From Escherichia phage UPEC03, in sequence record MW250785: a stretch of DNA of 64,000 bases; one strand, written 5' to 3'. The notes under the pieces are model-generated. The model saw nothing but the letters and a program-made list of their open reading frames with translations, had not been told where the DNA came from and made no database searches. The position numbers were made by a program, and so were the translations under genes. Shown one piece after another: positions 3,114 to 47,028 of the stretch. Each line of letters begins with the position of its first letter. Position 1 is the stretch's first letter.

Positions 3114-5105
3114 ATGGCTTTACAATCTCCAGGTATTGAAACCAAAGAAACATCGGTACAATCTACCGTTGTTCGAAATTCAACTGGTCGCGCTGCCATT
3201 GTCGGTAAATTTTCATGGGGGCCAGCTTATCAGATCCGTCAGATTTCTAACGAAGTCGAAATGGTAAACTATTTTGGTTCCCCAGACAACTTGACCGCTG
3301 ACTATTTCATGAGTGCTGTTAACTTCTTGCAGTACGGTAATGATCTCCGTGTGGTTCGCGTTGTCGATAAAGATGCCGCTAAAAACGCAAGCGCAATTTT
3401 CAACCAGATCAAAACAACTATCGCATCACAGGGTTCTAACTACACTGTAAACGATGTGATTAAAGTAAAATACAACAGCGTTGTTGTAGAAGAAAACGGC
3501 AAAGTGTCCAAAGTTGACAGTAACGGCAAGATCCTCTCGGTAATCATTCCAAGCGAAAAAATCGTTGCCCGTGCTAAACAGATTGGTACTTACCCAGATA
3601 TTTCTACTGGCTGGACTACCGAAATTGTTTCTCAGTCTTCCGGTGTTTCTGCGTCGATTACGATTGACGGCATCGAAAGCAATTCTGGGATCACTCTGTT
3701 GAACCTGGATATTGCAAAAGAAACAATTCAGGGAACCGCTTTCCAGACTCTTACCCAGAAATATCAGTTGCCGTCTGTTGTGGCTCTGTATCCTGGTGAA
3801 CTGGGTTCAACTGTTCAGGTGGAGATTATCTCCAAAGCTGCTTACGATTCTGGCGCTATGATTTCCGGCTACCCTTCTGGGGTTTCCGTTAAGAACAGCG
3901 GTCGTTCTGTAATGACCTACGGGCCACAGACCGATAACCAGTACGCTTTTGTTGTGCGTCGTGGTGGTATTGTACAGGAATCCTTCATCGTGTCAACTGA
4001 GAAGACCGATAAAGATATCTACGGCGTAAACATCTTCATGGATGACTTTTTCGCTAACGGTGGCTCTCAGTACGTTTACGGTACTTCCCTGAACTGGCCT
4101 AAAGGCTTCTCCGGTATCCTTGAGTTCGGCGGTGGTTTGTCCTCAAACGACACTGTAGGCGCTGATGAACTGATGACTGGTTGGGATATGTTCGCTGATC
4201 GTGAAGCGCTGCATGTACCTCTGCTGATTGCTGGTGCGTGTGCTGGTGAAACCGTAGAGATTATGTCTACCGTTCAGAAACATGTTATTTCAATCGGTGA
4301 TGAACGTCAGGATTGTACCGTGTTTGTGTCGCCTCCGCGCTCACTTCTGGTGAATATCCCGCTGGCAACTGCGGTTGATAACATGATTGAATGGCGTACT
4401 GGCTATAAACTCAGTGGTGGTGCTGCTGTTGATAACAATCTGAACGTAAGTTCAAGCTATGGCTTCCTGGATGGTAACTATAAATATCAGTATGATAAAT
4501 ACAATGACGTGAACCGTTGGGTTCCGCTGGCAGGTGATATCGCTGGCCTGTGTGTTTACACTGATAGCGTTTCTCAACCGTGGATGTCTCCAGCAGGTTA
4601 CAACCGTGGTCAGATCCGCAACTGTATCAAACTGGCTATCGAACCGCGCACAGCACATCGTGACGCAATGTATCAGGTTCAGATTAACCCGGTAACTGGT
4701 TTCGCGGGTGGTTCCGGCTTCGTTCTGTTCGGTGATAAAACACTGACTAACGTACCGAGTCCATTTGACCGTATCAACGTTCGTCGCTTGTTCAACATGA
4801 TCAAGAAAGACATCGGTGATAACGCGAAATACAAACTGTTTGAAAACAACGACGATTTCACCCGTTCTTCGTTCCGTATGGATACAGGTCAGTACATGAC
4901 TAATATTCGTGCGCTGGGTGGTTGCTACGATTACCGTGTAATCTGTGACACCACGAACAACACGCCGGACGTAATCGACCGTAACGAGTTTGTAGCAACG
5001 GTCTACGTGAAACCGCCTCGTTCTATCAACTACATCACTCTGAACTTCGTAGCAACGTCTACAGGCGCAGATTTCGATGAACTGGTAGGGCCGCAAGCCG
5101 TATAA
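3114..5105 (+). CDS. 18: Tail sheath protein gp18
   Basis: 663 aa; N-terminus SPGIE.KET.VQSTVV and overall size match T4 gp18; RBS GAGG upstream. Confidence 0.95.
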   Translation: MALQSPGIETKETSVQSTVVRNSTGRAAIVGKFSWGPAYQIRQISNEVEMVNYFGSPDNLTADYFMSAVNFLQYGNDLRVVRVVDKDAAKNASAIFNQIKTTIASQGSNYTVNDVIKVKYNSVVVEENGKVSKVDSNGKILSVIIPSEKIVARAKQIGTYPDISTGWTTEIVSQSSGVSASITIDGIESNSGITLLNLDIAKETIQGTAFQTLTQKYQLPSVVALYPGELGSTVQVEIISKAAYDSGAMISGYPSGVSVKNSGRSVMTYGPQTDNQYAFVVRRGGIVQESFIVSTEKTDKDIYGVNIFMDDFFANGGSQYVYGTSLNWPKGFSGILEFGGGLSSNDTVGADELMTGWDMFADREALHVPLLIAGACAGETVEIMSTVQKHVISIGDERQDCTVFVSPPRSLLVNIPLATAVDNMIEWRTGYKLSGGAAVDNNLNVSSSYGFLDGNYKYQYDKYNDVNRWVPLAGDIAGLCVYTDSVSQPWMSPAGYNRGQIRNCIKLAIEPRTAHRDAMYQVQINPVTGFAGGSGFVLFGDKTLTNVPSPFDRINVRRLFNMIKKDIGDNAKYKLFENNDDFTRSSFRMDTGQYMTNIRALGGCYDYRVICDTTNNTPDVIDRNEFVATVYVKPPRSINYITLNFVATSTGADFDELVGPQAV

Positions 5106-5150
5106 AGTCAAGGGGGCTGAAAAGCCCCCATAAATAATCCGAGGTTAAAA

Positions 5151-5636
5151 ATGCTTACTGACATTTTACGCGCCTTTGAATCCGGTGATTTCGCACGTCC
5201 GAACCTGTTCGAAGTAGAGATCCCGTATCTGGGCAAAAACTTTAAATTCAAGTGTAAAGCGGCAACCATGCCAGCGGCTACAGTTGAAAAAGTTCCGGTA
5301 GGATACCAAAACCGCAAAATCAACGTTGCTGGTGACCGTACCTATGATGACTGGACAATCACGATCTATAACGATGACGCGCATAATACGCGTGACGCTC
5401 TGGTAGCATGGTCAAACATGATGCACGGAATGGGCGATCAGATTAGTGGTGATATTCCAGCGAACTACAAAAAAACCGCTACGGTGAAACAGAAAAACCG
5501 TAACGATGAAATTACCGCCGATCACACCATCCACGGGCTGTTCCCTACTAACGTAGGCGAAGTTACCCTGGACTGGGATTCGAATAATGAAGTGTCAACC
5601 TTTGAGGTTACTTTCGCTCTGGACTGGTGGGAATAA
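5151..5636 (+). CDS. 19: Tail tube protein gp19
   Basis: 161 aa; RAFESGDFARPNLFEVEIPYLG and C-terminal DWDSNNEVSTFEVTFALDWWE match T4 gp19. Confidence 0.95.
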   Translation: MLTDILRAFESGDFARPNLFEVEIPYLGKNFKFKCKAATMPAATVEKVPVGYQNRKINVAGDRTYDDWTITIYNDDAHNTRDALVAWSNMMHGMGDQISGDIPANYKKTATVKQKNRNDEITADHTIHGLFPTNVGEVTLDWDSNNEVSTFEVTFALDWWE

Positions 5637-5640
5637 AGGC

Positions 5641-5648
5641 TATAAATA
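5641..5648 (+). promoter_or_regulatory. T4-type late promoter TATAAATA (gene 20)
   Basis: Exact TATAAATA ~40 nt upstream of gene 20 start, followed by a short hairpin. Confidence 0.6.
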
Positions 5649-5689
5649 CAGGGGTAGCAATACCCCTATCATTATTTTTCGGAGTTACT

Positions 5690-7264
5690 ATGAACTTTTT
5701 GGGCTTTGGCAATGTACTTAGCTTTTTCAAGAATTTCGCCCGTGAGGACGAATTAGATCTTGAACAGCAATTAAAAAATGATACAGGTTCGGTCGCGCCT
5801 CCTAAAAATAATGATGGTGCTTATGAAATCGAAACTGATCTGACTAATCAGAAATACGCAAGCGTATTCCAGCAGTTTTATTCTGGACAAGATCCGGCGA
5901 TTCAGAACAAAGAACAATTAATTAATACATATCGCGGCATCATGTCTTACCCAGAAGTTGAGAACGCTGTTTCTGAAATTATTGACGATGCGATCGTGAA
6001 TGAACAGGGCAAAGATATCATTACTTTGGATCTTGCCAAAACAGATTTTAGTAAGGCGATTCAAGACAAAATCGTAGAAGAATTTGATAACGTTCTAAAT
6101 ATCTATGATTTTGATAACATGGGTGCGCGTCTGTTCCGTGATTGGTATGTGGATTCCCGTATCTACTTCCATAAAATCATGCATAAAGACGAAAGCAAAG
6201 GTATCCGCGAACTGCGTCAACTTGATCCGCGTTCGATGGAACTGATCCGCGAATCTATCACTGAAACCCTTGATGGTGGCGTGAAAGTATTCCGTGGTTA
6301 TCGCGAATTTTTCGTGTATAGCGCTCCTAAAAATGGCTATACATACAACGGGCAGATCTACCAGCATAACCAGAAGGTTAAAATCCCGCGCTCCGCTATC
6401 GTGTATGCGCATTCTGGCCTGGAAGATTGCAGTAACAACATTATCGGATATCTGCACCGCGCAGTCAAGCCAGCAAACCAATTGCGTTTACTGGAAGATG
6501 CGATGGTCATCTACCGTATCACCCGCGCACCTGAACGCCGTGTGTTCTACATCGATGTAGGTCAGATGGGTGGCAACAAAGCGACACAGTACGTAAATAA
6601 CATCGCACAGGGGCTTAAAAACCGCGTTGTGTACGATGCTAAAACGGGTACTGTTAAGAACCAGCAAAACAACCTGTCAATGACAGAAGATTACTGGTTA
6701 ATGCGTCGTGACGGTAAAGCTATCACCGAAGTAGACACGCTTCCAGGCGGTGCTAACTTCTCTGATATGGATGATATCAAATGGTTTAACCGTAAGCTCT
6801 ATGAAGCACTGCGTGTGCCATTAAGCCGTATGCCTCGCGATGATGGGGGTATGCAAATTGGTGGTGGTGGCGAAATCACCCGTGATGAACTGAAATTCAG
6901 TAAGTTTATCCGCACACTGCAAATTCAGTTCAGCCCTGTGCTTTCCGATCCGTTAAAAACTAACCTGATCGCGAAAAAAATCATCACAGAGGAAGAATGG
7001 GAAGAAAACGTTAGCAAAATTTCCTTCATTTTCCAGCAGGATTCATATTACGCGGAAATGAAAGATATTGAGATTATGGAACGTCGCCTAACGTTAATGT
7101 CACAGGTTGAAGGTGTAGTTGGGAAATATGTCTCCCATAAATACATCATGAAAGAGATTCTTCGAATGTCTGATGAAGACATTGACGAACAAGCGAAGCT
7201 GATCGAAGAAGAATCCAAAGAAGAACGGTTCAAAAATCCCGAAGAGGAAGAGGAAAACTTTTGA
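5690..7264 (+). CDS. 20: Portal vertex protein gp20
   Basis: Strong similarity to T4 gp20 (IGYLHRAVKPANQLRLLEDA, MTEDYWLMRRDGKAITEVDTLPG); start chosen at ATG with GGAG RBS (track ORF begins upstream at 5627). Confidence 0.93.
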   Translation: MNFLGFGNVLSFFKNFAREDELDLEQQLKNDTGSVAPPKNNDGAYEIETDLTNQKYASVFQQFYSGQDPAIQNKEQLINTYRGIMSYPEVENAVSEIIDDAIVNEQGKDIITLDLAKTDFSKAIQDKIVEEFDNVLNIYDFDNMGARLFRDWYVDSRIYFHKIMHKDESKGIRELRQLDPRSMELIRESITETLDGGVKVFRGYREFFVYSAPKNGYTYNGQIYQHNQKVKIPRSAIVYAHSGLEDCSNNIIGYLHRAVKPANQLRLLEDAMVIYRITRAPERRVFYIDVGQMGGNKATQYVNNIAQGLKNRVVYDAKTGTVKNQQNNLSMTEDYWLMRRDGKAITEVDTLPGGANFSDMDDIKWFNRKLYEALRVPLSRMPRDDGGMQIGGGGEITRDELKFSKFIRTLQIQFSPVLSDPLKTNLIAKKIITEEEWEENVSKISFIFQQDSYYAEMKDIEIMERRLTLMSQVEGVVGKYVSHKYIMKEILRMSDEDIDEQAKLIEEESKEERFKNPEEEEENF

Positions 7265-7518
7265 TGAAAGAATTTATCGAAGCAATCAAAAGCGGTGATC
7301 TGGTGGAAGCGAAGAAACAATTCTATTCCATCATGGAAGACCGTACCGAAGCCCTTCGCCAAGAAATGCGCGTTGAACTCGCGGAAGCTGTACGTATCGA
7401 AGGTGAAACCGACGAAGACGACAACGATGACGATGACGACGACAAAGGCGGCGATGATAAAGGCGACGACAAAGACAAAAAGCCGTCTGATAAAAAAGAC
7501 GACGATAAAGACGAATAA
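7264..7518 (+). CDS. 67: Prohead core protein gp67 (acidic)
   Basis: Small ORF between 20 and 68; N-terminus MKEFIEAIKSGDLVEAKK similar to T4 gp67, acidic Asp/Glu-rich tail. Confidence 0.8.
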   Translation: MKEFIEAIKSGDLVEAKKQFYSIMEDRTEALRQEMRVELAEAVRIEGETDEDDNDDDDDDKGGDDKGDDKDKKPSDKKDDDKDE

Positions 7519-9440: not shown

Positions 9441-11015
9441 ATGTCTAAGAAAAACGAATTGATGGAAAAATGGAACGATCTTCTGGAATCTCAGGAAGGT
9501 TTACCGGATATCGCTACCAAATCCAAAAAACAACTGGTTGCAGCAATTCTGGAAACTCAGGAAAAGGATGCTGATACTGATCCAGTATATCGCGACGAAA
9601 AAATCATTGAATCCTTCGGCGGTTTCCTGGCGGAAGCAGAGATCGCGGGTGATCACGGTTACGACGCAACCAACATTGCCTCTGGTAAATCCAGCGGTGC
9701 AATCACCAACATCGGCCCTGCTGTAATCGGTATGGTTCGCCGTGCGATTCCTAACCTGATCGCATTCGACATTTGCGGTGTTCAGCCTATGACTGGCCCT
9801 ACTGGTCAGGTGTTCGCACTCCGTGCTGTATACGGTAAAGATCCTCTGGCTGGCGGTACTCCTGCAAACGTTCGTGAAGCATTCCATCCGATGTTCGCTC
9901 CAGACACCATGTATTCTGGTGAAGGTGCAAACACCGCGTTTGCTGCTATCGCTTCCGGTACTGCTATCGCTTCCGGCGCTATCGTTAAGCACGTATTCCA
10001 GGAAACTGGTATCGCGTACTTCCAGAACGTAACCTCCGGCAACGTAACCGTAACTGGTGCTGATGCTGCTGCTCTGGATGCTGCTGTAATCGCAGAAAAC
10101 GAGAAAGGCACTCTGGCTGAAATTTCCGAAGGTATGGCTACCAGCGTAGCAGAACTCCAGGAAAACTTCAACGGTTCCAGCGCTAACCCGTGGAACGAAA
10201 TGGCTTTCCGTATCGACAAACAGGTTATCGAAGCCCGTAGCCGTCAACTGAAAGCACAGTATTCCGTTGAACTGGCGCAGGATCTTCGCGCTGTACACGG
10301 TATGGACGCTGACGCCGAACTGTCTGCAATCCTGGCAACTGAAATCATGCTGGAAATCAACCGCGAAATCGTTGACCTGATCAACTACACCGCGCAGATT
10401 GGTAAGACTGGTTTCACTCAGACCGTTGGCTCTAAAGCTGGTGCGTTTGACTTCCAAGATCCAGTAGATATTCGCGGCGCTCGTTGGGCTGGTGAAAGCT
10501 ATAAAGCTCTGCTGATTCAGATCGACAAAGAAGCGAACGAAATCGCGCGTCAAACTGGTCGTGGTGCTGGTAACTTCATCATCGCTTCCCGTAACGTGGT
10601 TTCCGCTCTGGCTCGTATCGACAGCGGCATCACTCCGGCAGGTCAGGGTCTCCAGAAAACTCTGAACGTAGACACCACTAAAGCGGTATTCGCTGGTGTA
10701 CTGGGTGGCACTTACAAAGTGTACATCGACCAGTACGCTCGCCAGGATTACTTCACCGTGGGCTACAAGGGTGATAACGAAATGGATGCTGGTATCTACT
10801 ACGCTCCATACGTTGCGCTGACTCCGCTGCGTGGTTCTGATCCTAAGAACTTCCAGCCAGTAATGGGCTTCAAAACTCGTTACGGTATCGGTATCAACCC
10901 GTTTGCGAACTCTCGCTCTCAGGCTCCGGCAGATCGTATCACCTCTGGTATGATCAGCAAAGAAATGTGCGGTAAAAACGCATACTTCCGCCGCGTGTGG
11001 GTTAAGGGCTTATAA
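9441..11015 (+). CDS. 23: Major capsid protein gp23
   Basis: 524 aa; extensive identity to recalled T4 gp23 (GPAVIGMVRRAIPNLIAFDICGVQPM, YYAPYVALTPLRGSDPKNFQPVMGFKTRYGIGINPFA). Confidence 0.97.
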   Translation: MSKKNELMEKWNDLLESQEGLPDIATKSKKQLVAAILETQEKDADTDPVYRDEKIIESFGGFLAEAEIAGDHGYDATNIASGKSSGAITNIGPAVIGMVRRAIPNLIAFDICGVQPMTGPTGQVFALRAVYGKDPLAGGTPANVREAFHPMFAPDTMYSGEGANTAFAAIASGTAIASGAIVKHVFQETGIAYFQNVTSGNVTVTGADAAALDAAVIAENEKGTLAEISEGMATSVAELQENFNGSSANPWNEMAFRIDKQVIEARSRQLKAQYSVELAQDLRAVHGMDADAELSAILATEIMLEINREIVDLINYTAQIGKTGFTQTVGSKAGAFDFQDPVDIRGARWAGESYKALLIQIDKEANEIARQTGRGAGNFIIASRNVVSALARIDSGITPAGQGLQKTLNVDTTKAVFAGVLGGTYKVYIDQYARQDYFTVGYKGDNEMDAGIYYAPYVALTPLRGSDPKNFQPVMGFKTRYGIGINPFANSRSQAPADRITSGMISKEMCGKNAYFRRVWVKGL

Positions 11016-11040
11016 GTTGTTGAAAAACAACGACTTTTTA

Positions 11041-11068
11041 AAGGGAACCTTCGGGTTCCCTTTTTGTT
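11041..11068 (+). terminator. Intrinsic terminator after gene 23
   Basis: aaagggaacc-ttcg-ggttcccttt hairpin followed by T-run. Confidence 0.8.
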
Positions 11069-11070
11069 TA

Positions 11071-11078
11071 TATAAATA
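11071..11078 (+). promoter_or_regulatory. T4-type late promoter TATAAATA (upstream of GIY-YIG gene)
   Basis: Exact TATAAATA directly after gene 23 terminator. Confidence 0.55.
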
Positions 11079-11101
11079 ATGAAAACTATTGAGGCTATAT
11101 T

Positions 11102-11737
11102 ATGAAACATATAATTTATAAAATAACAAACAAGATAAACGATAGAATCTATATCGGCGCACATTCGACAGATGATATTAACGATTCATACATGGGTTCT
11201 GGTAAAGCAATCAAAGCGGCTCAACGGAAATATGGAATTGAGAACTTCGTAAAAGAGATCTTGTTCGTGTTTGATACAAGCGAAGAGATGTATGAAAAGG
11301 AAAGGGAGATTGTAAACCTAGATTTCGTCAATCGTCCAGATGTGTACAATATGGGCGTGGGTGGTTCTGGTGGCCCTATGCTGGGAATGTTTCATTCAGA
11401 AGAAAAGAAACATGAAATCTCCAAAAGAACTCGTGAAAGAATGACACCAGAAGTAAAAGAACGCCTTTCAAAAATAAAAACAGGAAAGAAACAATCGGAA
11501 GAATCCAACAGGAAGCGTTCAGAGACTATCAAAGCTATGTACAAGGGTTCTGCATTCGACAGAACCGGATCTAAGCTCACAGACGCACACAAGGCCAAAA
11601 TAAGCCGTTCTGTGTCGATAGATGGAGTTGTTTACGCAAGCGGTTCCGATGCTTCTAAAGCGTTGGGGCTTTCTCGATCTGGCCTTGATTACCGTTTAAA
11701 GAGTGACAAATTTCCTGAATGGAAATTCGTTGCATAA
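11102..11737 (+). CDS. GIY-YIG homing endonuclease (seg-like)
   Basis: N-terminal YKITNKINDRIYIGAHS…MGSGK GIY-YIG motif; AT-rich; sits between genes 23 and 24 where T4 carries segD; TATAAATA late promoter upstream. Confidence 0.8.
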   Translation: MKHIIYKITNKINDRIYIGAHSTDDINDSYMGSGKAIKAAQRKYGIENFVKEILFVFDTSEEMYEKEREIVNLDFVNRPDVYNMGVGGSGGPMLGMFHSEEKKHEISKRTRERMTPEVKERLSKIKTGKKQSEESNRKRSETIKAMYKGSAFDRTGSKLTDAHKAKISRSVSIDGVVYASGSDASKALGLSRSGLDYRLKSDKFPEWKFVA

Positions 11738-11775
11738 ATAAACAATATACTCCCTATAATTCAGGAACCAAAGAA

Positions 11776-13074
11776 ATGAGTGATAAACACTACACAATTC
11801 ACAAGTTGATGCGTCAGTCTGCGCTTCCGTCTGGTAAACGAGAAAAAGTTATCAACGAAGCAACAGGCACGACCGACATCAACGTACAGAACACGCGCCC
11901 AGAACTGGTTTCTTTGACTCGCGCGGTTAACAACCTGATCTATCATGAACTGGTTGCTGTACAAGAAACAGAACTCCCTGTTGCAACACTGTTCGGTGTT
12001 CGCTATCGCAACCCTAACGGTGATATGACTTTCTCCAGTGCTGCAACCTATTCAGGCCGAATCTCTGGACGTACAGACATCGACGAAATCGATCTGACTA
12101 AAGCCTACGTTAAAGGTGATTTGTTCAAGCATGACGGCACTGACGTTGTTTATGAGGTTATCGAACCGATTACCCTGAACACTCTGGATACTGACAAAGA
12201 CACCGCGATCATGAAAGCTGTGTTCCAAAGCAAAATTCGACTGGTGAGTGAAGCCGCTGACACTTCTAAGTATGAAACCAGCGAAGATATCGCGTCAACC
12301 TCCTTCCAGATGGATCGCTGGAATATTCCGGTACGTTCGCGTAAGTTTAAAACCGAAATGACGGTTGAACTGATGCAGGATTTGGAAGCGAACCAGTTCG
12401 AAGCTGATGGGGTGATCGAAGACATCCTGGGAACCGTGGCAAGTGAAGAAGTCAACAAAGACATTATTCAAACACTGATCACCGTTTCCAAACGTTACAA
12501 CGTTGATGGACTCGTTACGGATGGTATTTTTGACGGTACTACCGCATACACCGCGAAGGATGCTCCAGCATTGGGTCGTATCCTGTATCAATTAGCGTGT
12601 GAAATGGGGCAGGAAATGAATAGAACGACTTCATTTGATGCTACCTACGTCCTCGCAACAGCGCGTGTTGTAGGCATTCTGGCTGCGTCTGGTTGGATGC
12701 ACGAAACCGACGAACAACACCCACTGGCAACAGGTAAGCTGAACAACGGTTATTATGTCTATACAGACACAACCAGTCCGTTCGATTATATGCTGACTGG
12801 CTGCAAATATGATCTGGGTGATATGGATCACGTAGGCTCTCTGTTCTTTGCTCCGTATACCGAAGCTGACGAAGCAGGTTCAATCAAAGTATCCGTAGAT
12901 CCGGCATCCCTGCAACCAAAAGTTGCTATTCTGATGCGTTACGGTCTTTCCGTGAACCCGTACACAGCAGAAAGCGAATCCGATCACCTGATCAAAGGTG
13001 ATGATTGGTCTGCTCTTGCAGGTAAATCTAAGCTGAGTCAGATCGTAGGTATTAAGTTACCTAAACTGGGTTAA
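11776..13074 (+). CDS. 24: Capsid vertex protein gp24
   Basis: gp23-paralog pattern (NLIYHELVAVQET, SRKFKTEMTVELMQDLEAN, ILAASGW, PYTAESE) matching T4 gp24; start at ATG (MSDKHY) within track ORF 11719. Confidence 0.9.
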   Translation: MSDKHYTIHKLMRQSALPSGKREKVINEATGTTDINVQNTRPELVSLTRAVNNLIYHELVAVQETELPVATLFGVRYRNPNGDMTFSSAATYSGRISGRTDIDEIDLTKAYVKGDLFKHDGTDVVYEVIEPITLNTLDTDKDTAIMKAVFQSKIRLVSEAADTSKYETSEDIASTSFQMDRWNIPVRSRKFKTEMTVELMQDLEANQFEADGVIEDILGTVASEEVNKDIIQTLITVSKRYNVDGLVTDGIFDGTTAYTAKDAPALGRILYQLACEMGQEMNRTTSFDATYVLATARVVGILAASGWMHETDEQHPLATGKLNNGYYVYTDTTSPFDYMLTGCKYDLGDMDHVGSLFFAPYTEADEAGSIKVSVDPASLQPKVAILMRYGLSVNPYTAESESDHLIKGDDWSALAGKSKLSQIVGIKLPKLG

Positions 13075-29181: not shown

Positions 29182-29664
29182 ATGCTGACGAAACGAATTA
29201 CCAAAAAAGACTACCCAACTATCAAGCAAGCTCTCTTTGAAAAACAAGGGGGCTGTTGTGCTATCTGTAAACGTCCCCTGGAGGGCGAGATCGAGAAACA
29301 TCACCTTGACCATGACCATGCTTTAGACGGCGAAAACGCCGGACGTGTGCGCGGCCTACTGTGTAACCTATGCAACGGTACAGAAGGTATTGTGAAGCAC
29401 AAATTCAACAGATCCGGTCTGGTGTCCCGTGATGTCGATTACATCCAGTGGTTAGAGAACTTGCTTGCATATCTGAAACAAGACTATTCCGAAAACCGTA
29501 TTCATGACAAATTCATACCAGATAAGGTAAAATGGTTTTCAAGACTTACCAAACCTGATATGATTGCCGAAATGGTTTCTATGGGCTTCGAGTACGCCGA
29601 CAAAGACGAACGCAAAGCCTTAACCGCAAAATATAGAAAGCAATTAATGAAGGCAACGAAATGA
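29182..29664 (+). CDS. 49: Endonuclease VII (Holliday junction resolvase) gp49
   Basis: HLDHDH…GRVRGLLCNLCN…KHKFNRSGL…VDYIQWLENLLAYLK match T4 endo VII. Confidence 0.93.
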   Translation: MLTKRITKKDYPTIKQALFEKQGGCCAICKRPLEGEIEKHHLDHDHALDGENAGRVRGLLCNLCNGTEGIVKHKFNRSGLVSRDVDYIQWLENLLAYLKQDYSENRIHDKFIPDKVKWFSRLTKPDMIAEMVSMGFEYADKDERKALTAKYRKQLMKATK

Positions 29665-31778
29665 AAGTAGAAAAACGCGACGGCAAAACCGTTGATTTTG
29701 ATAAAGAAAAAATCCGTATTGCTGTAGAAAAAGCTGGCGGGACTATGACGGATGCTGATGCCGCAATCATGCTGGTTCAGTACAATCAGATCCGTGATGG
29801 TAGCGCAATGAAGATCGCCCGTATCCAGGAACTCGTTGAAGAATCCCTGATGAAAACGAACCCAGCGGTCGCCCGTGCATACATCGAATATCGCCACGAT
29901 CGCGATATTGCCCGTGAACAGAAAAGTAAGCTGTTCAAAGATATCTCCGGCATGGTGAATCTGTCCAACAAAGAGATCACCAACGAGAACGCAAACAAAG
30001 ACGCACGGGTATTCCCGACACAGCGTGATTTGCTGGCGGGTATTGTAGCGAAGCATTTCGCCCGTAATCATATCCTTCCGAAACATATCGTAGAAGCGCA
30101 TGACTCCGGCGACATCCATTATCACGATCTGGACTATAGCCCGTTCACCCCTTACACTAACTGCTGTCTGGTTGACCTGAAAGGTATGCTGGAGAACGGT
30201 TTCAAGATGGGTAACGCGGATATTGAACCGCCTAAATCGATCGGTGTTGCTACCGCTCTCATGGCACAGATCACCGCACAGATTGCCTCTCACCAGTACG
30301 GCGGGACAACCTTTGCAAACGTGGATAAAGTGCTGGCTCCATACGTTGAAATGACTTTCCAGAAGCACGTAAAAGAAGCCAGAAAATATAACGTTAGCGA
30401 AATCAAGCGATATGCTTTAGAAAAGACTGAAAAAGATGTTTTCGATGCGTTCCAGTCTTACGAATATGAAGTTAACACCCTACATACTGCCAATGGTCAA
30501 ACCCCATTCGTTACCATCACTTTCGGTACTGGATTGGGTAAGTTCGAGCGCATGATCCAGAAAGCGATTCTAAAAAACCGTATTCGCGGACTGGGTAAAG
30601 AGGGTATCACTCCGGTATTCCCTAAACTGGTTATGTTTATGGAAGATGGTATTAATTTACATCCTGACGATCGCAACTATGACATCAAACAACTTGCCCT
30701 GGAATGTGCTTCTAAACGCATGTACCCAGATATCATTAGTTCAGCTAACAACCGTGTTATTACTGGTTCTAGTGTTCCTGTATCTCCTATGGGTTGTCGC
30801 AGTTTCCTTAGCGTGTGGCATGATGATAACGGTAATGAAGTTCTTGATGGACGTAATAACCTGGGTGTGGTGACAATCAACCTCCCACGCATCGCTATTG
30901 AAGCGGAAGCACAGGAAGAAGAAGACGCGCACGACGCATTCTGGCGCATCCTTGATGAACGTCTGGAACTGTGTTTTGAAGCCCTGATGACTCGTATCGA
31001 AAGCCTACGCGGTGTTAAAGCCAGTGTTGCGCCTATCCTGTACACAGAAGGTGCTTTTGGTGTCCGACTGAAACCGGATGATGAAATTCTGGAACTGTTC
31101 AAAAATGGGCGTAGCTCTATCAGTCTGGGTTATATTGGACTGCATGAAACGCTGCTGATGTTTGGCTCAGGCCAACACCCATTTGATCGCATCGGCTCCC
31201 AGAAATTAGGTCGATTGATCATTGAATATCTCCGCGCTGCAACCGAAGCATGGAAGAAGAAAACAGGATATGGTTTCAGCCTGTATTCAACCCCTGCGGA
31301 ATCTCTCTGCCATCGCTTCTGTAAGCTGGACTTTGAGAAGTTCGGAAGCGTCAAAGGTGTCACGGATAAAGGCTGGTACACAAACAGTTTCCATCTGGAC
31401 GTTGATCGCAAGGTAACACCGTTCGAGAAAATCGACTATGAAGCCGATTATCATTACATCGCTACTGCTGGTCATATCAGTTACGTTGAATTCCCTGATA
31501 TGAAAAACAACCTGCAAGCCCTGGAAAAAGTCTGGGATTATGCGATGGAAAAACTGGACTACTTCGGAACTAACCTTCCGGTCGATAAGTGTTTTGTATG
31601 TGGCTCTGATGACGAGTTCACGCCTACAGAAGAGGGTTTCCACTGTAAGCACTGCGGTAATCACGATCCGGCTAAAATGAATGTAACTCGTCGTACTTGC
31701 GGATATCTGGGCGCTGCTGAACGTCCGATGAACAAAGGTAAACAAAACGAAATCATTCACCGTGTGAAACATAACTAA
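29661..31778 (+). CDS. nrdD: Anaerobic ribonucleoside-triphosphate reductase NrdD
   Basis: 705 aa; N-terminal ATP-cone (VEKRDGKTVDFDKEKI), C-terminal Zn-ribbon CxxC…CxxC and glycyl-radical region (RRTCGYLG); uninterrupted ORF. Confidence 0.93.
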   Translation: MKVEKRDGKTVDFDKEKIRIAVEKAGGTMTDADAAIMLVQYNQIRDGSAMKIARIQELVEESLMKTNPAVARAYIEYRHDRDIAREQKSKLFKDISGMVNLSNKEITNENANKDARVFPTQRDLLAGIVAKHFARNHILPKHIVEAHDSGDIHYHDLDYSPFTPYTNCCLVDLKGMLENGFKMGNADIEPPKSIGVATALMAQITAQIASHQYGGTTFANVDKVLAPYVEMTFQKHVKEARKYNVSEIKRYALEKTEKDVFDAFQSYEYEVNTLHTANGQTPFVTITFGTGLGKFERMIQKAILKNRIRGLGKEGITPVFPKLVMFMEDGINLHPDDRNYDIKQLALECASKRMYPDIISSANNRVITGSSVPVSPMGCRSFLSVWHDDNGNEVLDGRNNLGVVTINLPRIAIEAEAQEEEDAHDAFWRILDERLELCFEALMTRIESLRGVKASVAPILYTEGAFGVRLKPDDEILELFKNGRSSISLGYIGLHETLLMFGSGQHPFDRIGSQKLGRLIIEYLRAATEAWKKKTGYGFSLYSTPAESLCHRFCKLDFEKFGSVKGVTDKGWYTNSFHLDVDRKVTPFEKIDYEADYHYIATAGHISYVEFPDMKNNLQALEKVWDYAMEKLDYFGTNLPVDKCFVCGSDDEFTPTEEGFHCKHCGNHDPAKMNVTRRTCGYLGAAERPMNKGKQNEIIHRVKHN

Positions 31779-31831
31779 GAACACCTAGTATTAGCGCCTT
31801 CAATAAATAAAGAAAAATTGAGGGCGCTAAT

Positions 31832-32683
31832 ATGTTTTACACAATCTACAAAATAACCAACACTATCAATGGGCGTGAATATATCGGCGCTCATAAAACT
31901 GATAATCTCGATGATCGATACATGGGTTCTGGAAAGAACATCAAACATGCTATTGATTTCTATGGCATTGAATCTTTCGTAAAGGAAATATTGTATGTTT
32001 TTGATACGGAAGAGGAAATGTATCTAAAAGAAGCTGAACTCGTAACAGACGAGTATATTTCGCTTCCTCACACATACAACATCAAACCCGGTGGTAAAGG
32101 CGGAACGGCCTACGAACAAAGCGAAGAACATCGACGCAAAAACAGTAATGCGCTAAAAGGAAGAGAAATCACTCCATTACATCGCGATCGGATCTCCCGT
32201 GCATTGAAAAATCATGTCCGTAGTGAAGAACATCAACGGAAACTGAGTGAAGCATCAAAGATTGCTGTTAGTACACCCGAACATAAAGAAAAGATGTCTG
32301 CTCATTTTACAGAACTGTATAAATCTCGTCCTGAATTGAAACAGCAAATATCATCTTCTGTCAAAGCACATTATGCTAATGAAACAGAAGAAGAGAAAAA
32401 TCAACGTCGATTGCGTCATACAGGGAAGGTTCGGTCGGAAGAAACCAAACAAAAACTATCCATTGCTCATAAAGGAAAACATACAGGAGAGAAAAATCCT
32501 ATGTTCGGCAAACCTGCATCGAATCGCCGTATGGTTTCTGGTGATGGTGTTGTGTATGGTTCCGTCAAAGAAGCTGCGGAAACACTGGGGTTGTCGCAAG
32601 GAACAATCGTTGCTCGATGCAAATCACAGAAAAATGTAAATTGGTTCTATGTAGGTGTTGACTTGCCGAATCAAATCGATTAG
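31832..32683 (+). CDS. GIY-YIG homing endonuclease (seg/I-Tev-like), paralog of 11102..11737
   Basis: [30 protein letters not shown]; N-terminal ~70 aa near-identical to the other GIY-YIG ORF. Confidence 0.8.
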
Positions 32684-32732
32684 TATTTTCTACATCGAAG
32701 CAAATCAATTTGAAATCAAATAAGGTAAAATT

Positions 32733-39393: not shown

Positions 39394-42300
39394 ATGGTAG
39401 CTAAATCATTCCGCGCCACAAGTGGCCTTGATGCTGCTGGCGAAAAAGTTATCAACGTTGGTAAAGCATCACGCTCTGTGTTGAGCGACGGCGTGAACGT
39501 TGACTTTTTTAACGAATTTAACACGATCCAACAATACGATTCTACCCGTGGTTATGCTGCGTTTATGGCTATCATGTACGCGCGTCGTATTTGGTACGCT
39601 CGCGCAGATATTCCATCACCAGCGGGTGCTTTCGATGAAACAAAATGGATCTCAACCCGTAACGATCCAAAATGGGTATATAACAACGTAACGAGCAATG
39701 ACGGTCTCCCTGTTGAATCCGGTACGTACTTAATGGCTGACGGTCGTTTCTCTGAATTGACCTATATTCTGCCAGATGCCCCTGTTGAGGGTGATATTAT
39801 CACTATTAAAGATGGTGGCGGTCTTGCAGGGATCAACAACCTGTTAGTGCGTTCAAACACTCGTCAGATCCGTTTACGTGATATTCAGTCAAGCTCTTAT
39901 CGACTGACTCACCCATATATGACCGTTGCGTTTATTTTTAACGGCAACTTATGGCGTGTTGCTGAAATGCGTGATAACCGTGATTCGCAGTTTGTTAATG
40001 CGACTGGTTTAACCGCTTTCCAAATGCAAGCGGGTATGGTAACATTCCGTAACAGTGGAACGGGTAAAATTACGTTGCAGTTGCCTCGCTACGCAAACGA
40101 TGGTGACTCAATCACAACTTACGATCTGGATCGCCTTGCTTCGGTGAACGTTGCGACTCTGCAAGTTTATCCTGGTAGCGGACACACGATCAGTTATGAC
40201 GGTATCAATAACGTACCCTCTGTGACTTCACAGCGTTCCGGTTATGGTATTTTCATGTTCGATCAGGCTAATAACCGTTGGGTTGTTTATGACGGTGATC
40301 AGCGCGTTCGTCTGCGTCGTATCAGTGATGACCTGAACATGTTGCCGAACGATTACGTGTTCATTACTCCTGTTGCTGGTAGTCCTCCAACTGTGCGTAA
40401 CGTTACGCTGACTCTTCCGCAAGATGTTGCCGAAGGTGATCGCGTGTATATCAGTATGTACATGATGGGGAAAACGCAGAACTGCACGATCAAAGTTAAA
40501 GATGGTTCCGGTGAAAAGATCCGCACCAACAAAAACATGATGCAGTTCCCACAGCGTAAGGATTATCCGCCTAATGATTGGTTCAGTGTTGACACTCTGA
40601 CTTTCAATGCCGATACTGACTATCTTCCATACATGGAATTGTCGTATCTGAAAGCTACGAAAGAATGGGTAGTTGCACAGTATCGCCCGATCATTGAACG
40701 TGTCGATCCAACAAACCGTTCTCGTCTGGGTGTGATTGCGCTGGCTACACAGGCAGAAGTAAACAAGAACCATGAAGATACGCCGTCTGATGAACTGGCA
40801 GTAACCCCGCGTACACTGGCGAATAAAACCGCTACTGAAACGCGTCGTGGTATCGCTCGCCTGGCAACAACTGCGGAAGTTAACCAGAACACGACAGCAA
40901 CCTTCCTTGATGACGTGATCGTGACGCCTAAAAAGCTGAACGAACGATCAGCAACAGAAGATCGTCGTGGGGTGCTGGAAATCGCAACTCAGGCAGAAAC
41001 AAACGCTGGTACTGATGACACTACCGCAATCACGCCTAAGAAGCTCGACACACGCCGCGCGACCGAAACCCTAGCAGGTATCGGAAAACTCGTTACAACG
41101 GGCGCTACGACAGCGGAGGGGGCTTTACGTGGGGATGCTGGTACTAACGTCTACAACTTCAATAACGGTGTTGATCTGATCACTCCGAAATCATTGAACG
41201 AGAAGACGGCGACCGAAAAGTCAAAAGGTCTGGTTGTTCTGGCGACTGAAAACGAAGTGGTAACTGGTGCTGCTGCGGGATCTGCTTCAATGCCGATCGT
41301 AGTAACTCCTGAAATGCTGCATCGTAAAACGTCTACTGAAACGCGTATCGGATTGATTGAGATCGCAACCCAGACAGAAACAAACACGGGAACTGACGAT
41401 CTCCGTGCTGTAACGCCTAAGAAGCTGAACGATCGTAAAGCGACTGAATCACTTGATGGTATTATTGCCCTCGCTACCACTGCGGAAGTTGCAGCAGGTA
41501 CGGTAACGAATAAGGCGGTTGTTCCGGTTAAGCTGAAAGAGTTCTTCGACGTTACAAGTCATGTTGCGGTTGCTACCGATGACGGTTTAACTCAGTCCGG
41601 CACTATCTGGACAACGATTAACCTGGGGATTGCGTCTGCTACTGAAACACAGCGCGGTACTTTACGTGTTGCGACTCAGGGTGAAACTGATGCGGGTCTT
41701 CTGGATACCGTGTTCATTACGCCTAAGAAACTGCAAGCGAAGAAAGCGACGGATACCGCCGAAGGTATTATTCGTTGTGCGACTAACGCGGAAGCGGGTG
41801 CGGGTACTGCTACTAACCTGGCAATTACTCCGGCTACCATGCAGTTCTTGAACGGTACTGATCCGGCGTGGGGTGCGACGACAACTCGACGCGGTGCGGT
41901 GTTTATCACTACCCAATCAAACACTTTCATCGGTGATAATCTGGTTGGTTCTACTCAGGCCGTTGACGATTATCTCGAAGATTTCTATGCTGTATCGCCT
42001 CGCGGTCTGAACTTTGCTCTGCAAAACTTCTTACCGAAAATGGCAACGGCACAGAATAGTTTGAGTCTGGGCGGTGTGGTTGCTGCAAGCTGGATGCGTC
42101 GTGATGCAAACCAGACGGTAACTGGAAATAACACGTTTAACGGTACAAGCAACTTCGTTGGTAACGTAACCACTAACGGAACACTGACGGCTAACGCTGC
42201 GGTAACGGTTAACAACACCGTAACCACGAACAATAACATTAACCAGTCTGCGAAAGCAAACACTGTTTATGCAAATACTGTTCTGAGTGGTGAGGCTGCG

Positions 42301-43053
42301 GGAACCAAAAACTTGCTTCGTACCTTCCGTGGTGGTGTGGCGGATACGATCTGGCATGAAACTGTTCAGGCAAGCACGTATCGCCTGGCGACGGGTACAA
42401 CGGATCTGGTTGACGTTCTGACAGTAGGTGATGTCGGTAACGGCACAATGGCGTATTCCGGTACGAACATTCGTCTGAATGGTAAAGCTCTGGCTAACAT
42501 CAACACGGCGGGTGATTTGTTTGTTGCAAGTACAGCAACGCCTACGGTACAATTACGAACCGCTGCAACTAATGGTTGGAACGGTGTAACAATCAGTAAT
42601 GACGGCGGCACAACCACTGCAACCGTGATCAACACCCGAAACTTTACCCAGCATCTTGACAGTACCTATGTCAACGTAGCGGGTGATACTATGACTGGTG
42701 CGCTGTCAGTTAGCGTAAACGGTACGGGTGGACGCTTTACCAGTGTGAGCGGTACGGCACATGTTCAGGCGGGTGATTTCTCTGGGAACGTCCAGAAAAT
42801 GCGCTTAACTGGCATTGACGATAAGGTATTGACTGAGTTCAACATCAATATCACCGATTACAACAAAGCGATGATCAACGGAAACCTGATCTATCATGCA
42901 GGTCGTAAACCGACTCCGGCAGAAATCGGGGCGGTGGCGGTAGCGGGTTCAACCGTCGATACTCTGGTTGTACGTAACTATATCAAAATCGGTAACGTGA
43001 AAATCTTCGCAAACCCAGCAACTAAGACTTGTGAATTTGTGTGGGAGGAATAA
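39394..43053 (+). CDS. 34: Long tail fiber proximal subunit gp34
   Basis: 1219 aa; repeated …ATETRRGIARLATTAEVNQNTT…RRGVLEIATQAETNAGTDDTTAITPKKL… blocks and C-terminal IGAVA…NYIKIGNVKI…FVWEE match T4 gp34; TATAAATA upstream. Confidence 0.93.
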   Translation: MVAKSFRATSGLDAAGEKVINVGKASRSVLSDGVNVDFFNEFNTIQQYDSTRGYAAFMAIMYARRIWYARADIPSPAGAFDETKWISTRNDPKWVYNNVTSNDGLPVESGTYLMADGRFSELTYILPDAPVEGDIITIKDGGGLAGINNLLVRSNTRQIRLRDIQSSSYRLTHPYMTVAFIFNGNLWRVAEMRDNRDSQFVNATGLTAFQMQAGMVTFRNSGTGKITLQLPRYANDGDSITTYDLDRLASVNVATLQVYPGSGHTISYDGINNVPSVTSQRSGYGIFMFDQANNRWVVYDGDQRVRLRRISDDLNMLPNDYVFITPVAGSPPTVRNVTLTLPQDVAEGDRVYISMYMMGKTQNCTIKVKDGSGEKIRTNKNMMQFPQRKDYPPNDWFSVDTLTFNADTDYLPYMELSYLKATKEWVVAQYRPIIERVDPTNRSRLGVIALATQAEVNKNHEDTPSDELAVTPRTLANKTATETRRGIARLATTAEVNQNTTATFLDDVIVTPKKLNERSATEDRRGVLEIATQAETNAGTDDTTAITPKKLDTRRATETLAGIGKLVTTGATTAEGALRGDAGTNVYNFNNGVDLITPKSLNEKTATEKSKGLVVLATENEVVTGAAAGSASMPIVVTPEMLHRKTSTETRIGLIEIATQTETNTGTDDLRAVTPKKLNDRKATESLDGIIALATTAEVAAGTVTNKAVVPVKLKEFFDVTSHVAVATDDGLTQSGTIWTTINLGIASATETQRGTLRVATQGETDAGLLDTVFITPKKLQAKKATDTAEGIIRCATNAEAGAGTATNLAITPATMQFLNGTDPAWGATTTRRGAVFITTQSNTFIGDNLVGSTQAVDDYLEDFYAVSPRGLNFALQNFLPKMATAQNSLSLGGVVAASWMRRDANQTVTGNNTFNGTSNFVGNVTTNGTLTANAAVTVNNTVTTNNNINQSAKANTVYANTVLSGEAAGTKNLLRTFRGGVADTIWHETVQASTYRLATGTTDLVDVLTVGDVGNGTMAYSGTNIRLNGKALANINTAGDLFVASTATPTVQLRTAATNGWNGVTISNDGGTTTATVINTRNFTQHLDSTYVNVAGDTMTGALSVSVNGTGGRFTSVSGTAHVQAGDFSGNVQKMRLTGIDDKVLTEFNINITDYNKAMINGNLIYHAGRKPTPAEIGAVAVAGSTVDTLVVRNYIKIGNVKIFANPATKTCEFVWEE

Positions 43054-44705: not shown

Positions 44706-44894
44706 ATGGCTGATTTGAAATTAGGTACAACGCTGGGTGGTGCGGGTATCTGGAGTGCTTCTAACCTTCCTCTATTGCCCTCTGGTGGACAATTAACGTA
44801 TAAAGGCTGGAGAGTATACACAGAAAATGATCGTCCAACAGCGGAGGATATAGACGCACTATCGACGATTAACGGCGGTACTGTTGCGGTATAA
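44706..44894 (+). CDS. 36: Distal long tail fibre protein (gp36/37 family), N-terminal fragment truncated by frameshift
   Basis: MADLKLGTTLGG…IWSASNLPLLPSG N-terminus parallels the downstream fibre gene and T4 gp36; terminates inside a 91-bp tandem duplication. Confidence 0.7.
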   Translation: MADLKLGTTLGGAGIWSASNLPLLPSGGQLTYKGWRVYTENDRPTAEDIDALSTINGGTVAV

Positions 44895-44979
44895 AGGCTG
44901 GAGAGTATACACAGAAAATGATCGTCCAACAGCGGAGGATATAGACGCACTATCGACGATTAACGGCGGTACTGTTGCG
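44798..44979 (+). repeat. Perfect tandem duplication, 2 x 91 bp
   Basis: Bases 44798-44888 and 44889-44979 read identically (gtataaaggctggagagtataca…ggtactgttgcg); 91 is not a multiple of 3. Confidence 0.9.
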
Positions 44980-47028
44980 AAGAATACTACATTCAATCAG
45001 AATTTGGTTGTGGGTGCTTCATTAACTGCTAACTTGATTCAATCGAATAGTGTTCTTACCATCCAACGTAGCGCAAACCCTGCGGAAATGATTTTCTATC
45101 GTCCCGATATTACGGCAACCCCGTCATCTGAAGCATGGGTTTTAAACATGTATGCGAAAGATGGTTTGAATCGAGGCATGGGTTCGTTGATTATTTCTGC
45201 TCGTACTGACGGTGGAAATAAAGTATATCTGCGGGCGAATAAAGACGGTTCCCCTAATACAAGTTTAACGCTGGATTCGCAAACCCAACAGGTAACAGTT
45301 GAGCAAGGATCTTTTCGCGTAATCGGTACTACGAATCTTGGTGTGACGAACGCCGCATCAATGGCGGTTAGCGGTGCGGTAACTGCGAATACAGTAACCC
45401 CGACAAACTGGGCTAACCATGATGAACGATATATGACGGGCATTCCTCGCGGTATGTCTGGAACAAGTTTCGGTGCTGCTGTTGTAACTGAAAAGAACGA
45501 TGTTCTGTCGGTAGGCGGTAACATCACCGACGGCCCATATGGTAACACTACGTATTACGGGCAGGTTGTCAACTATCGCCGTACATTGAATAGTGGGGTT
45601 TCATTAGTTCAAACATACTTCGGGAACGAAATGTGGTTTCGTCTTGGATCAGGTTCTCCGGGTGCGTGGTCATGGAACCAGGGCGATGCTAATGGTTGGC
45701 GGCGTGTTTATGATACGGTCAGTCCACCAACTCCGGCAGAAGTGGGGGCAGTAAACAAAGCTGGTGATACAATGACTGGTGGTTTAGCGTTACTTGGGGA
45801 TTTGACCTTTCGAAATTTGGTAAATCGTCATATTCGTTTCGAATACACCAAAAACGACGGTTCTACCGCTGTTGACGCTTACATCTATAAAGATGGTGTA
45901 GATAGCTCTACTCGCCGTGCTGGACTTCGCATTAACTGTGCCACACCGAACAAAGCGAGCGGGAATACTTTAAACTCAGGTGATTTTGTATTCGGGGAGA
46001 ATGGTAACTTCACACTGCCTGGCGGTGGTATGATTATTCAGGACGGCCTTAACTCTGGTGTTTATTGTATTTCTGCATTGAGTACATTATCAACAGGAAC
46101 GAAGAATTACCTTCGTCGTTTCCGTGGTGGTTCTGGTGATGTGATTTTTCATGAAACCGTACAAAGTAATACATGGCGTATAGCGTCGGGTGGTTCTGAT
46201 TCACAAGATGAAATGGTTCTTTCTACTGCTGGTTCTGGTTGGGTTCGATATCGTGGAGAGGTTGTTTCGCAATCAGCTAACGGGTTGCGGATTGCGTATA
46301 ACAATAAAGGATTCTTTATCCGAAATGACTCAAACACCACATATTTCTTGTTGACTAATGATAATGATCCCTATGGCTCGTACAACAGTCTTCGCCCTTT
46401 GTATATCAACAATGATACTGGTTCTGTAACGTTAGGTCATGCTGTTGGAATAGGCGGAAACCTCAGCGTCAACGGTACATTTACCACAGCAAACAGCAGT
46501 TTGAGCAATGGTCAATTAGTATTAAACGGTTCAGGCGATTCGCAAGTTTATTTTTCACGAAGTGGTGCTAACCCTCGCGATATGAGAATTTTCCATTCTG
46601 GTGATGCTTCTCGCGGGAACCGTGTTGAAATTGCTGATTCTACATCATATCTGGTTTATTTTGAGCGTCATCCGTCAAGTGGCATTCAGTTGTCCATGAA
46701 CGGTAACGGTATCTTTAACGATGTGTATATTCGTTCTGATGAAAGACTGAAAAGTAATTTCAGTAAGATTGAAAATGCATTGGATAAAGTTGATTTGCTT
46801 GATGGTATGGTGTACGACAAAGCAAACCATATCGGGGGTGAAGAAACTACCCGCGAGGCTGGTTTAGTCGCACAACAACTGCAAGAAGTATTACCGGAAG
46901 CCGTTAAGAAAGGTGTTGATGGTGAACAGAACGAGATCTTAACTGTTTCGTCTTCTGCTGTTATTGCGTTGCTGGTTAACGCGATTAAAGAACTCCGTGA
47001 GGAAGTCAGGGAACTTAAATCCCGCTAA
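44884..47028 (+). CDS. 36: Distal long tail fibre protein (gp36/37 family), main body, with C-terminal intramolecular chaperone (S74-type) domain
   Basis: Re-encodes YKGWRVYTENDRPTAEDIDALSTINGGTVA from the second repeat copy; conserved NYLRRFRGGSGDVIFHETVQ block; C-terminal DVYIRSDERLKSNF…LVNAIKELREEV self-cleaving chaperone signature. Confidence 0.8.
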   Translation: MRYKGWRVYTENDRPTAEDIDALSTINGGTVAKNTTFNQNLVVGASLTANLIQSNSVLTIQRSANPAEMIFYRPDITATPSSEAWVLNMYAKDGLNRGMGSLIISARTDGGNKVYLRANKDGSPNTSLTLDSQTQQVTVEQGSFRVIGTTNLGVTNAASMAVSGAVTANTVTPTNWANHDERYMTGIPRGMSGTSFGAAVVTEKNDVLSVGGNITDGPYGNTTYYGQVVNYRRTLNSGVSLVQTYFGNEMWFRLGSGSPGAWSWNQGDANGWRRVYDTVSPPTPAEVGAVNKAGDTMTGGLALLGDLTFRNLVNRHIRFEYTKNDGSTAVDAYIYKDGVDSSTRRAGLRINCATPNKASGNTLNSGDFVFGENGNFTLPGGGMIIQDGLNSGVYCISALSTLSTGTKNYLRRFRGGSGDVIFHETVQSNTWRIASGGSDSQDEMVLSTAGSGWVRYRGEVVSQSANGLRIAYNNKGFFIRNDSNTTYFLLTNDNDPYGSYNSLRPLYINNDTGSVTLGHAVGIGGNLSVNGTFTTANSSLSNGQLVLNGSGDSQVYFSRSGANPRDMRIFHSGDASRGNRVEIADSTSYLVYFERHPSSGIQLSMNGNGIFNDVYIRSDERLKSNFSKIENALDKVDLLDGMVYDKANHIGGEETTREAGLVAQQLQEVLPEAVKKGVDGEQNEILTVSSSAVIALLVNAIKELREEVRELKSR

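Follow-up and report, generated by a model that had tools for sequence, protein, structure and literature searches.

Analyses of the 64,000-nucleotide stretch of Escherichia phage UPEC03 DNA considered here (sequence record MW250785; hereafter the window) identified two genes for Seg-type GIY-YIG homing endonucleases, one between genes 23 and 24 (ORF A) and one directly downstream of nrdD (ORF B). The best overall explanation of the data, in which we have high confidence, is that these are two long-diverged seg genes at independent sites, ORF B being a SegH-type element and ORF A an older resident. The useful outcome is a correction, as the two genes represent neither a recent duplication nor a recombinogenic repeat.

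The ORF calls agreed with the original prediction on the position and plus-strand orientation of both genes (Table 1), and matches to Pfam, PHROG and PDB entries bore out its assignment of a GIY-YIG homing endonuclease to each locus, specifying both as Seg type. The GIY-YIG, NUMOD3 and I-TevI_DNA-bd families of Pfam were matched in both proteins: ORF A matched PF01541 at 24.2 bits (cut-off 22.6) and PF20987 at 95.6 bits, as well as PF07460, and ORF B matched PF20987 at 41.3 bits and PF07460 at 40.5 bits. Two of the ORF B matches were under the Pfam gathering cut-offs (PF01541, 15.0 versus 22.6; PF19835, 24.5 versus 25), and its GIY-YIG assignment is backed by homology to ORF A (1e-45) and to T4 SegB (9e-33). 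PHROG 314, "homing endonuclease", was matched by ORF A at 4e-61 and by ORF B at 9.5e-64. The structure of the I-TevI DNA-binding domain (PDB 1I3J) matched the C-termini of both proteins, in ORF A over residues 137–208.

Searches of the PDB by phmmer with the full-length proteins found the I-TevI DNA-binding domain alone and no match for the catalytic domain. A profile built from the N-termini of 12 Seg sequences aligned weakly (E ~0.01), although along the entire length (residues 2–92), to the I-TevI catalytic domain (1LN0/1MK0). Residues Y6, Y17, G19, E67 and N83 were invariant across the 12 sequences, ORF A and ORF B included. In the same weak profile alignment the position of I-TevI Arg27 was an insertion relative to the Seg profile, also for the T4 Seg sequences, and the invariant residues near it in the 12 Seg sequences were H21, D28 and Y30, with no invariant Arg among them.

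Both genes lie between complete ORFs and are free-standing. The prediction that nrdD is intron-less and ORF B consequently free-standing was confirmed, nrdD being a single ORF with no Rfam intron family; an Rfam search of the whole window matched zero families, group I introns included. No Seg or HNH gene besides these two was found when the window was searched. By their domain, residue, location and presence/absence features, ORF A and ORF B are assigned as Seg-type GIY-YIG homing endonuclease genes.

The gene class is already known and has been studied in depth. Proteins 100% identical to ORF A and ORF B have been deposited for Enterobacter phage EcL22g and for HMGUkp1 and KLB1, respectively. 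The ORF A gene is labelled "homing endonuclease" in EC-F1, GAP161 and RB16, and the records of both genes in relatives read "(putative) Seg-like homing endonuclease, GIY-YIG family". The seg-like genes of RB16 and KP15 have been listed in a review (PMC2993671), and the uneven spread of such genes among close T4 relatives has also been reviewed (PMC2993671, PMC2988022). The presence of the two genes is therefore ordinary and matters little beyond correct annotation.

Table 1. Features of the two seg loci. Positions are those of the window unless another phage is named.
Feature	Position	Strand	Length	Remarks
Gene 23 (major capsid protein)	9441–11015	+		Gene preceding ORF A
Intrinsic terminator hairpin of gene 23	11040–11063	+		Followed by T-run; conserved in RB43 and RB16
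T4-type late promoter TATAAATA	11071–11078	+		Perfect; 23 nt before ORF A
Inserted segment with ORF A	11079–11748	+		Window–RB43 BLAST alignment stops at 11078 and resumes at 11749
Divergent patch in ORF A	11100–11490	+		Catalytic domain and start of linker; allele replacement inside otherwise identical flanks
ORF A	11102–11737	+	211 aa	Seg-like free-standing GIY-YIG homing endonuclease, gene 23/gene 24 gap
ORF A domains				GIY-YIG aa 2–90; NUMOD3 aa 113–130; I-TevI-type HTH aa 158–209
Gene 24 (capsid vertex protein)	11776–13074	+		N-terminus MSDKHYTIHKLM, as in RB43 and RB16 gp24
nrdD (anaerobic ribonucleotide reductase large subunit)	29661–31778	+	705 aa	One uninterrupted ORF
Variant nrdD 3' end travelling with ORF B	31661–31778	+		Right after RRTCGYLG codons (glycyl-radical motif)
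Cassette with ORF B	31763–32702	+	~1 kb	Limits are BLAST break points
RNA hairpin before ORF B	31788–31833	+	17 bp	31788–31804 paired with 31817–31833
Late-promoter-like AATAAATA	31802–31809	+		7/8 matches to T4 late promoter; in hairpin 5' arm and loop
ORF B	31832–32683	+	283 aa	SegH-like free-standing GIY-YIG homing endonuclease, 53 nt after nrdD
ORF B domains				GIY-YIG aa 3–90; NUMOD3 repeats; I-TevI-type HTH aa 225–273
Replacement cassettes after nrdD	EC-F1 4889–6107; EC-W1 4357–5339; RB16 6682–7355			Numbering of the examined loci

The phage represented by the window was assigned to Pseudotevenvirus, as a T4-like phage of the RB16/GAP161 type. The best database match was 98% identical over 24.5 kb of the window. 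The 23/24 locus was 100% identical to that of Enterobacter phage EC-F1, and the nrdD-seg locus was 99.0–99.5% identical to those of GAP161, leE, Kp_GWPR59 and others.

Two further observations concern the tail-fibre region. A perfect 91-nt tandem duplication (44798–44888 and 44889–44979) lies near the 5' end of a long-tail-fibre gene (ATG at 44706). Because 91 is not a multiple of three, the duplication shifts the frame, with a stop just after ...INGGTVAV; the remainder of the gene is found as an ORF in another frame (44884–47028), and deleting one of the 91-nt copies gives a continuous ORF. All the listed relatives have a single copy of the unit (801-nt query aligning to ~709 nt), and the duplication either genuinely disrupts the gene or arose as an error of assembly. 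The same region contains diverged direct repeats, 63–73% identical (42307–42405, 46102–46200, 48201–48299 and 40831–41768), which probably encode repeated protein motifs.

The seg gene between genes 23 and 24

Comparison with gp24 of RB43 and RB16 placed the start of gene 24 at 11776 (MSDKHY...), not at 11719 as given by the ORF finder. With this start, gene 24 does not overlap the end of ORF A, as the ORF-finder frame had done. The predicted placement of ORF A between genes 23 and 24 behind a late promoter held, the promoter being a perfect copy of TATAAATA. There were eight exact sites of this sequence in the window versus 2.3 expected, and none other than this copy between it and gene 24, from which we infer that a late transcript of seg and gene 24 probably has ORF A as its first cistron. 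A search for a hairpin over the ribosome-binding site of ORF A found none (z = +0.8).

RB43 represents the empty site. Its 23/24 spacer is 93 nt long and has no seg gene, the gene 23 terminator is kept, and TGTAAATA occupies the equivalent place ahead of the gene 24 ribosome-binding site. Relative to RB43, the ORF A insertion starts directly after TATAAATA and ends short of the ribosome-binding site of gene 24. We propose that ORF A is an older insertion just after the late promoter upstream of gene 24, and that its placement there would lead to late expression at the head of the seg-24 message.

Orthologues of ORF A with at least 60% identity were found at the 23/24 locus in ~231 records from Pseudotevenvirus, Slopekvirus and relatives. 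The ratio dN/dS was 0.11 in comparison with VAC66, and dN was 0 for the C-terminal half in comparison with RB16. Judged from these comparisons, ORF A is a long-standing resident that is close to fixation in its clade and evolves under purifying selection.

Relative to phage leN, identity in 50-nt windows was 42–78% across the divergent patch of ORF A, versus 98–100% in genes 23 and 24. Codons 120–211 of ORF A were 97% identical to leN at the nucleotide level (dS 0.10), whereas dS was saturated for codons 1–95. The window-type patch was present in ~16 records, and a search for its donor found nothing above 76% identity outside its own allele class. These identity profiles identify ORF A as a gene in which the catalytic module was exchanged on a constant DNA-binding module, the reverse of the picture in which the same nuclease is joined to a retargeted binder. 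Domain shuffling in homing-endonuclease genes has been described before (PMC10448857). In the explanation favoured here, purifying selection keeps ORF A intact, and a divergent allele has taken the place of its original catalytic half.

These features also bear on the possibility that ORF A is a retained or domesticated gene and no longer selfish, maintained for competitor exclusion, as an I-TevI-like DNA-binding regulator or because of its location within the late transcription unit of gene 24. Its near fixation across Pseudotevenvirus and Slopekvirus, the purifying selection on it and its situation between the late promoter and the ribosome-binding site of gene 24 are all consistent with such a role, and entanglement with host-gene promoters is considered to favour retention (review PMC2988022). 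In addition, a paper on T4 SegD reports, by its title, that homing of the segD gene is not initiated by the enzyme it encodes, and ORF A, like T4 SegD, may no longer be homing. On the other hand, RB43 still has the empty site, which means that targets for homing exist, ORF A has kept its catalytic residues, and the allele swap indicates that exchange is still going on at the 23/24 locus. We consider domestication unlikely on balance, although it is the strongest of the alternatives weighed here, and retain the reading of ORF A as an older resident seg gene.

Divergence of ORF A and ORF B

The two proteins were homologous over their full length (BLASTP E = 1e-45, 36% identity, 140 bits). The original prediction had described their N-terminal ~70 residues as almost identical, and of this the homology stands but the near-identity does not: 48 of the first 70 residues were the same (69%), and the corresponding DNA was 64% identical, with 74%, 76% and 44% identity at codon positions 1, 2 and 3. 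The longest exact nucleotide match between the genes was 15 nt (at 11188 and 31918), and the pair was not among the repeats reported when the entire window was scanned with a seed of 12 and a minimum length of 30. With identity this low, the genes do not share the ~200 bp of near-identical DNA that had been suggested as a substrate for genome rearrangement.

Nor do the C-terminal parts simply diverge, as the prediction had it. The last ~50 residues of both proteins form a homologous I-TevI-type helix-turn-helix, 41% identical and matched in each case by 1I3J. The chief difference between the two proteins is the presence in ORF B of ~70 additional linker residues with NUMOD3-like repeats.

From the similar N-termini and the supposedly divergent C-terminal parts it had been proposed that one seg gene was recently duplicated within the genome and its DNA-binding domain then retargeted. 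Such a duplication would account for the homology of the two proteins over their whole length and for the similar 5' leaders of the genes, both of which contain ATAAATA and the Shine-Dalgarno sequence GAGG. The DNA-level data refute it. Besides the low identity at third codon positions and the short exact match, dS for the codons of the catalytic domain was saturated and not computable by the NG86 method. The prediction had itself named DNA-level divergence as the observation that would overturn a duplication, and divergence is what the pairwise DNA alignment, the test it had proposed, revealed.

Comparisons with other Seg proteins were equally unfavourable to a recent duplication, as each gene had closer relatives elsewhere. 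Over 88 aligned residues of the catalytic domain, ORF A was 61% identical to ORF B, 62.5% to T4 SegB and 59% to SegD, while ORF B was 66% identical to RB3 SegH. Scores against ORF A were about equal for T4 SegD (148.5 bits) and ORF B (147.5 or 142.8 bits), and ORF B was nearer to RB3 SegH (231 bits, 48% identity) than to ORF A (140 bits, 36%). In neighbour-joining analysis of the catalytic domain, ORF A and ORF B grouped exclusively with each other in 0.2% of the 500 bootstraps, versus 91% for monophyly of the 23/24 seg genes and 74% for ORF B with the SegH-type protein. The shared motifs (YKITN..YIGAH..YMGSG..KEIL..EEMY) are a signature common to the SegA–E group of T4, and so are family-wide. 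We consequently regard a recent duplication as highly improbable.

A second way to account for the pair is concerted evolution, in which gene conversion between the loci keeps just the catalytic halves alike; although the N-terminal halves are indeed more alike (61–69% of residues) than the linkers, and the catalytic half of ORF A was clearly replaced through recombination in this lineage, this too is scarcely credible, as stronger N-terminal conservation holds for all Seg proteins and no stretch above 90% nucleotide identity was found between the loci in this window. Derivation of the ORF A patch from ORF B by gene conversion was rejected in particular, the window-type patch being 61.4% identical to ORF B and so no nearer to it than the leN/RB16-type patch, at 60.2%. 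Nucleotides 15–148 of ORF A were 72–75% identical to T4-type segB genes and 64% identical to ORF B, and their greater closeness to the former does not support conversion between the loci. Together, these comparisons identify ORF A and ORF B as ancient relatives that came to their sites separately.

The ORF B cassette downstream of nrdD

The distribution of ORF B differed from that of ORF A. The gene was carried by ~22 of 166 related records, nearly always at 99% identity or above, and was absent from EC-W1, RB16 and EC-F1, the last of which is 100% identical to the window at the 23/24 locus. Positions 31750–32650 were 100% identical among the window, GAP161 and leE, while the flanks, in comparison of the window with GAP161 and leE, were 66–95% identical in upstream nrdD and 55–98% identical in the downstream genes. 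Such a profile would be expected if the cassette had recently spread horizontally and its flanks had been co-converted. In EC-F1, EC-W1 and RB16 the slot after nrdD is occupied by a different cassette, made up of two or three small ORFs without a recognisable domain; the replacement ORFs of EC-F1 (160, 80 and 166 aa) had no Pfam domain. A more diverged seg allele, ~75–77% identical to ORF B, was found in the Klebsiella phage Prick1_ER44, and the dN/dS of 0.07 between the two indicates that the ORF B protein is under purifying selection. The identity profiles suggest that ORF B is spreading at present and that ORF A has long been resident and has had its catalytic module replaced. Both cases illustrate, on a modest scale, dynamics already known for homing endonucleases.

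The 3' end of nrdD was found to vary with the presence of ORF B. Relative to the seg-less phages EC-F1, EC-W1 and RB16, nrdD was 94–100% identical up to ~31660, and identity dropped to 84–86%, 66% and 43% within its last 118 nt. The same 118 nt were 98–100% identical to those of the seg-carrying phages GAP161 and leE. The encoded NrdD tail is ...RRTCGYLGAAERPMNKGKQNEIIHRVKHN in the seg-linked allele and ...RRTCGYLGAPAVRGFNEGKNKEMMHRTKHQN in the seg-less allele, and the Prick1_ER44 seg allele is accompanied by the same tail type as in the window. The proposal that ORF B targets the nrdD region is plausible in the light of this co-variation of the last ~100 nt of nrdD with the gene, and of the relationship of ORF B to SegH in both position and sequence. 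We infer that the nrdD 3' end is a candidate target or immunity polymorphism of ORF B, although its co-variation with seg could instead reflect hitch-hiking.

By analogy with other Seg proteins, the helix-turn-helix and NUMOD3 linker of ORF B would anchor at or near the nrdD 3' end in seg-less phages, after which the GIY-YIG domain tethered to them would cut both DNA strands. Repair from a co-infecting, seg-carrying genome would copy the ~1-kb cassette together with the linked nrdD 3' end.

Elsewhere in nrdD, a patch at 30361–30410 was hypervariable, being 40–51% identical to EC-W1, RB16, GAP161 and leE and 94% identical to EC-F1. This patch indicates mosaic recombination within nrdD.

Analyses of the region immediately upstream of ORF B identified an RNA hairpin of −23.6 kcal/mol (z = −7.2), with none of 200 shuffled sequences folding equally well. 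The hairpin sequesters the Shine-Dalgarno sequence GAGG (31820–31823) and the AU of the start codon, and was kept in the Prick1_ER44 allele with one compensatory pair (A:U to U:A). The late-promoter-like AATAAATA was likewise conserved in Prick1. An RNA beginning just after AATAAATA, and so without the 5' arm of the hairpin, had no stable structure. Translation of ORF B would probably be repressed on read-through transcripts by the hairpin over its ribosome-binding site and released on late transcripts that begin inside the hairpin. A switch of this kind is a predicted function of the two elements, and the arrangement of a ribosome-binding-site hairpin with a late promoter has been described for I-TevI, I-TevII, I-TevIII, T4 segB and Aeh1 mobE (PMC2988022).

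Based on these observations, we speculate that the SegH-like cassette may behave as a unit, comprising the replacement 3' end of nrdD, an essential gene (last ~30 codons), and the translational hairpin switch along with the gene, that is sweeping Pseudotevenvirus while the seg gene at 23/24 exchanges its catalytic module in place. We put this forward tentatively, as a scenario somewhat more likely to be wrong than right. If true, these phages would offer a natural series for the study of Seg nuclease re-assortment and the co-evolution of host-gene targets.

In leE there was an extra endonuclease gene with HNH and NUMOD3 domains directly upstream of nrdG (11354–11995 of the examined locus), which is mobC-like and has no counterpart in the window. 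Its location beside nrdG points to the nrdD-nrdG interval as a hot spot for homing-endonuclease genes.

Comparison with known homing endonucleases

The closest known counterpart of ORF B was SegH of phages RB3/U5, which is reportedly the subject of work by Sandegren, Nord & Sjoberg from 2005 (NAR 33:6203, cited in PMC2790892). The identity of RB3 SegH to ORF B extended over 279 aa, essentially the full length (E = 6e-80), with equal domain order, and the catalytic-domain identity between them was the highest for ORF B in the set of proteins compared. RB3 and ACG-C40 have an identical 276-aa seg protein, with the co-oriented gene order nrdD-seg-nrdG, and ORF B is equal to SegH in position and orientation, directly 3' of nrdD in the nrdD-nrdG interval; in T4 this slot is filled by mobC. 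A GenBank note for GAP161 points out the relationship of RB3 SegH to the ORF B copy of that phage. There were also differences between the systems. Five more ORFs lie between the seg gene and nrdG in the window, and the RB3 seg gene overlaps the end of nrdD and lacks a hairpin comparable to that before ORF B. The C-terminal helix-turn-helix domains of ORF B and SegH were just 36% identical, and their recognition sequences may therefore differ. As a homologue by sequence and position, ORF B can be named SegH-like.

ORF A occupies the same 23/24 interval as T4 SegD, which was its best match in T4 (~40% identity over the full length). However, T4 segD runs antiparallel to genes 23 and 24 and lacks its own promoter (PMC2988022), whereas ORF A is co-oriented with these genes behind TATAAATA. 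The C-terminal DNA-binding domains of the two proteins were 14% identical, with similarity in the N-terminal half and linker only. We rejected the assignment of ORF A as a simple orthologue of T4 SegD on account of these differences in strand and C-terminal domain; the 23/24 gap seems instead to have been occupied independently in the two cases.

T4 SegB shared the catalytic-domain signature with both proteins, and over the 88 aligned residues its identity to ORF B was 56.8%, compared with the 62.5% noted above for ORF A. SegB and the other characterised Seg enzymes (SegA, C, E, F and G) are likewise free-standing, with intron-less homing, but their insertion sites and C-terminal domains differ from those of ORF A and ORF B.

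I-TevI is intron-encoded and ORF A and ORF B are not, yet all three have the same two-domain architecture. The structures of the I-TevI catalytic domain align to the Seg catalytic profile, and the C-terminal helix-turn-helix of I-TevI was 32% identical to that of ORF A and 43% identical to that of ORF B. A zinc-finger linker like that of I-TevI was not detected in either protein. The regulatory logic proposed for ORF B, in which a hairpin over the ribosome-binding site would be combined with a late promoter, is the same as that described for I-TevI (PMC2988022).
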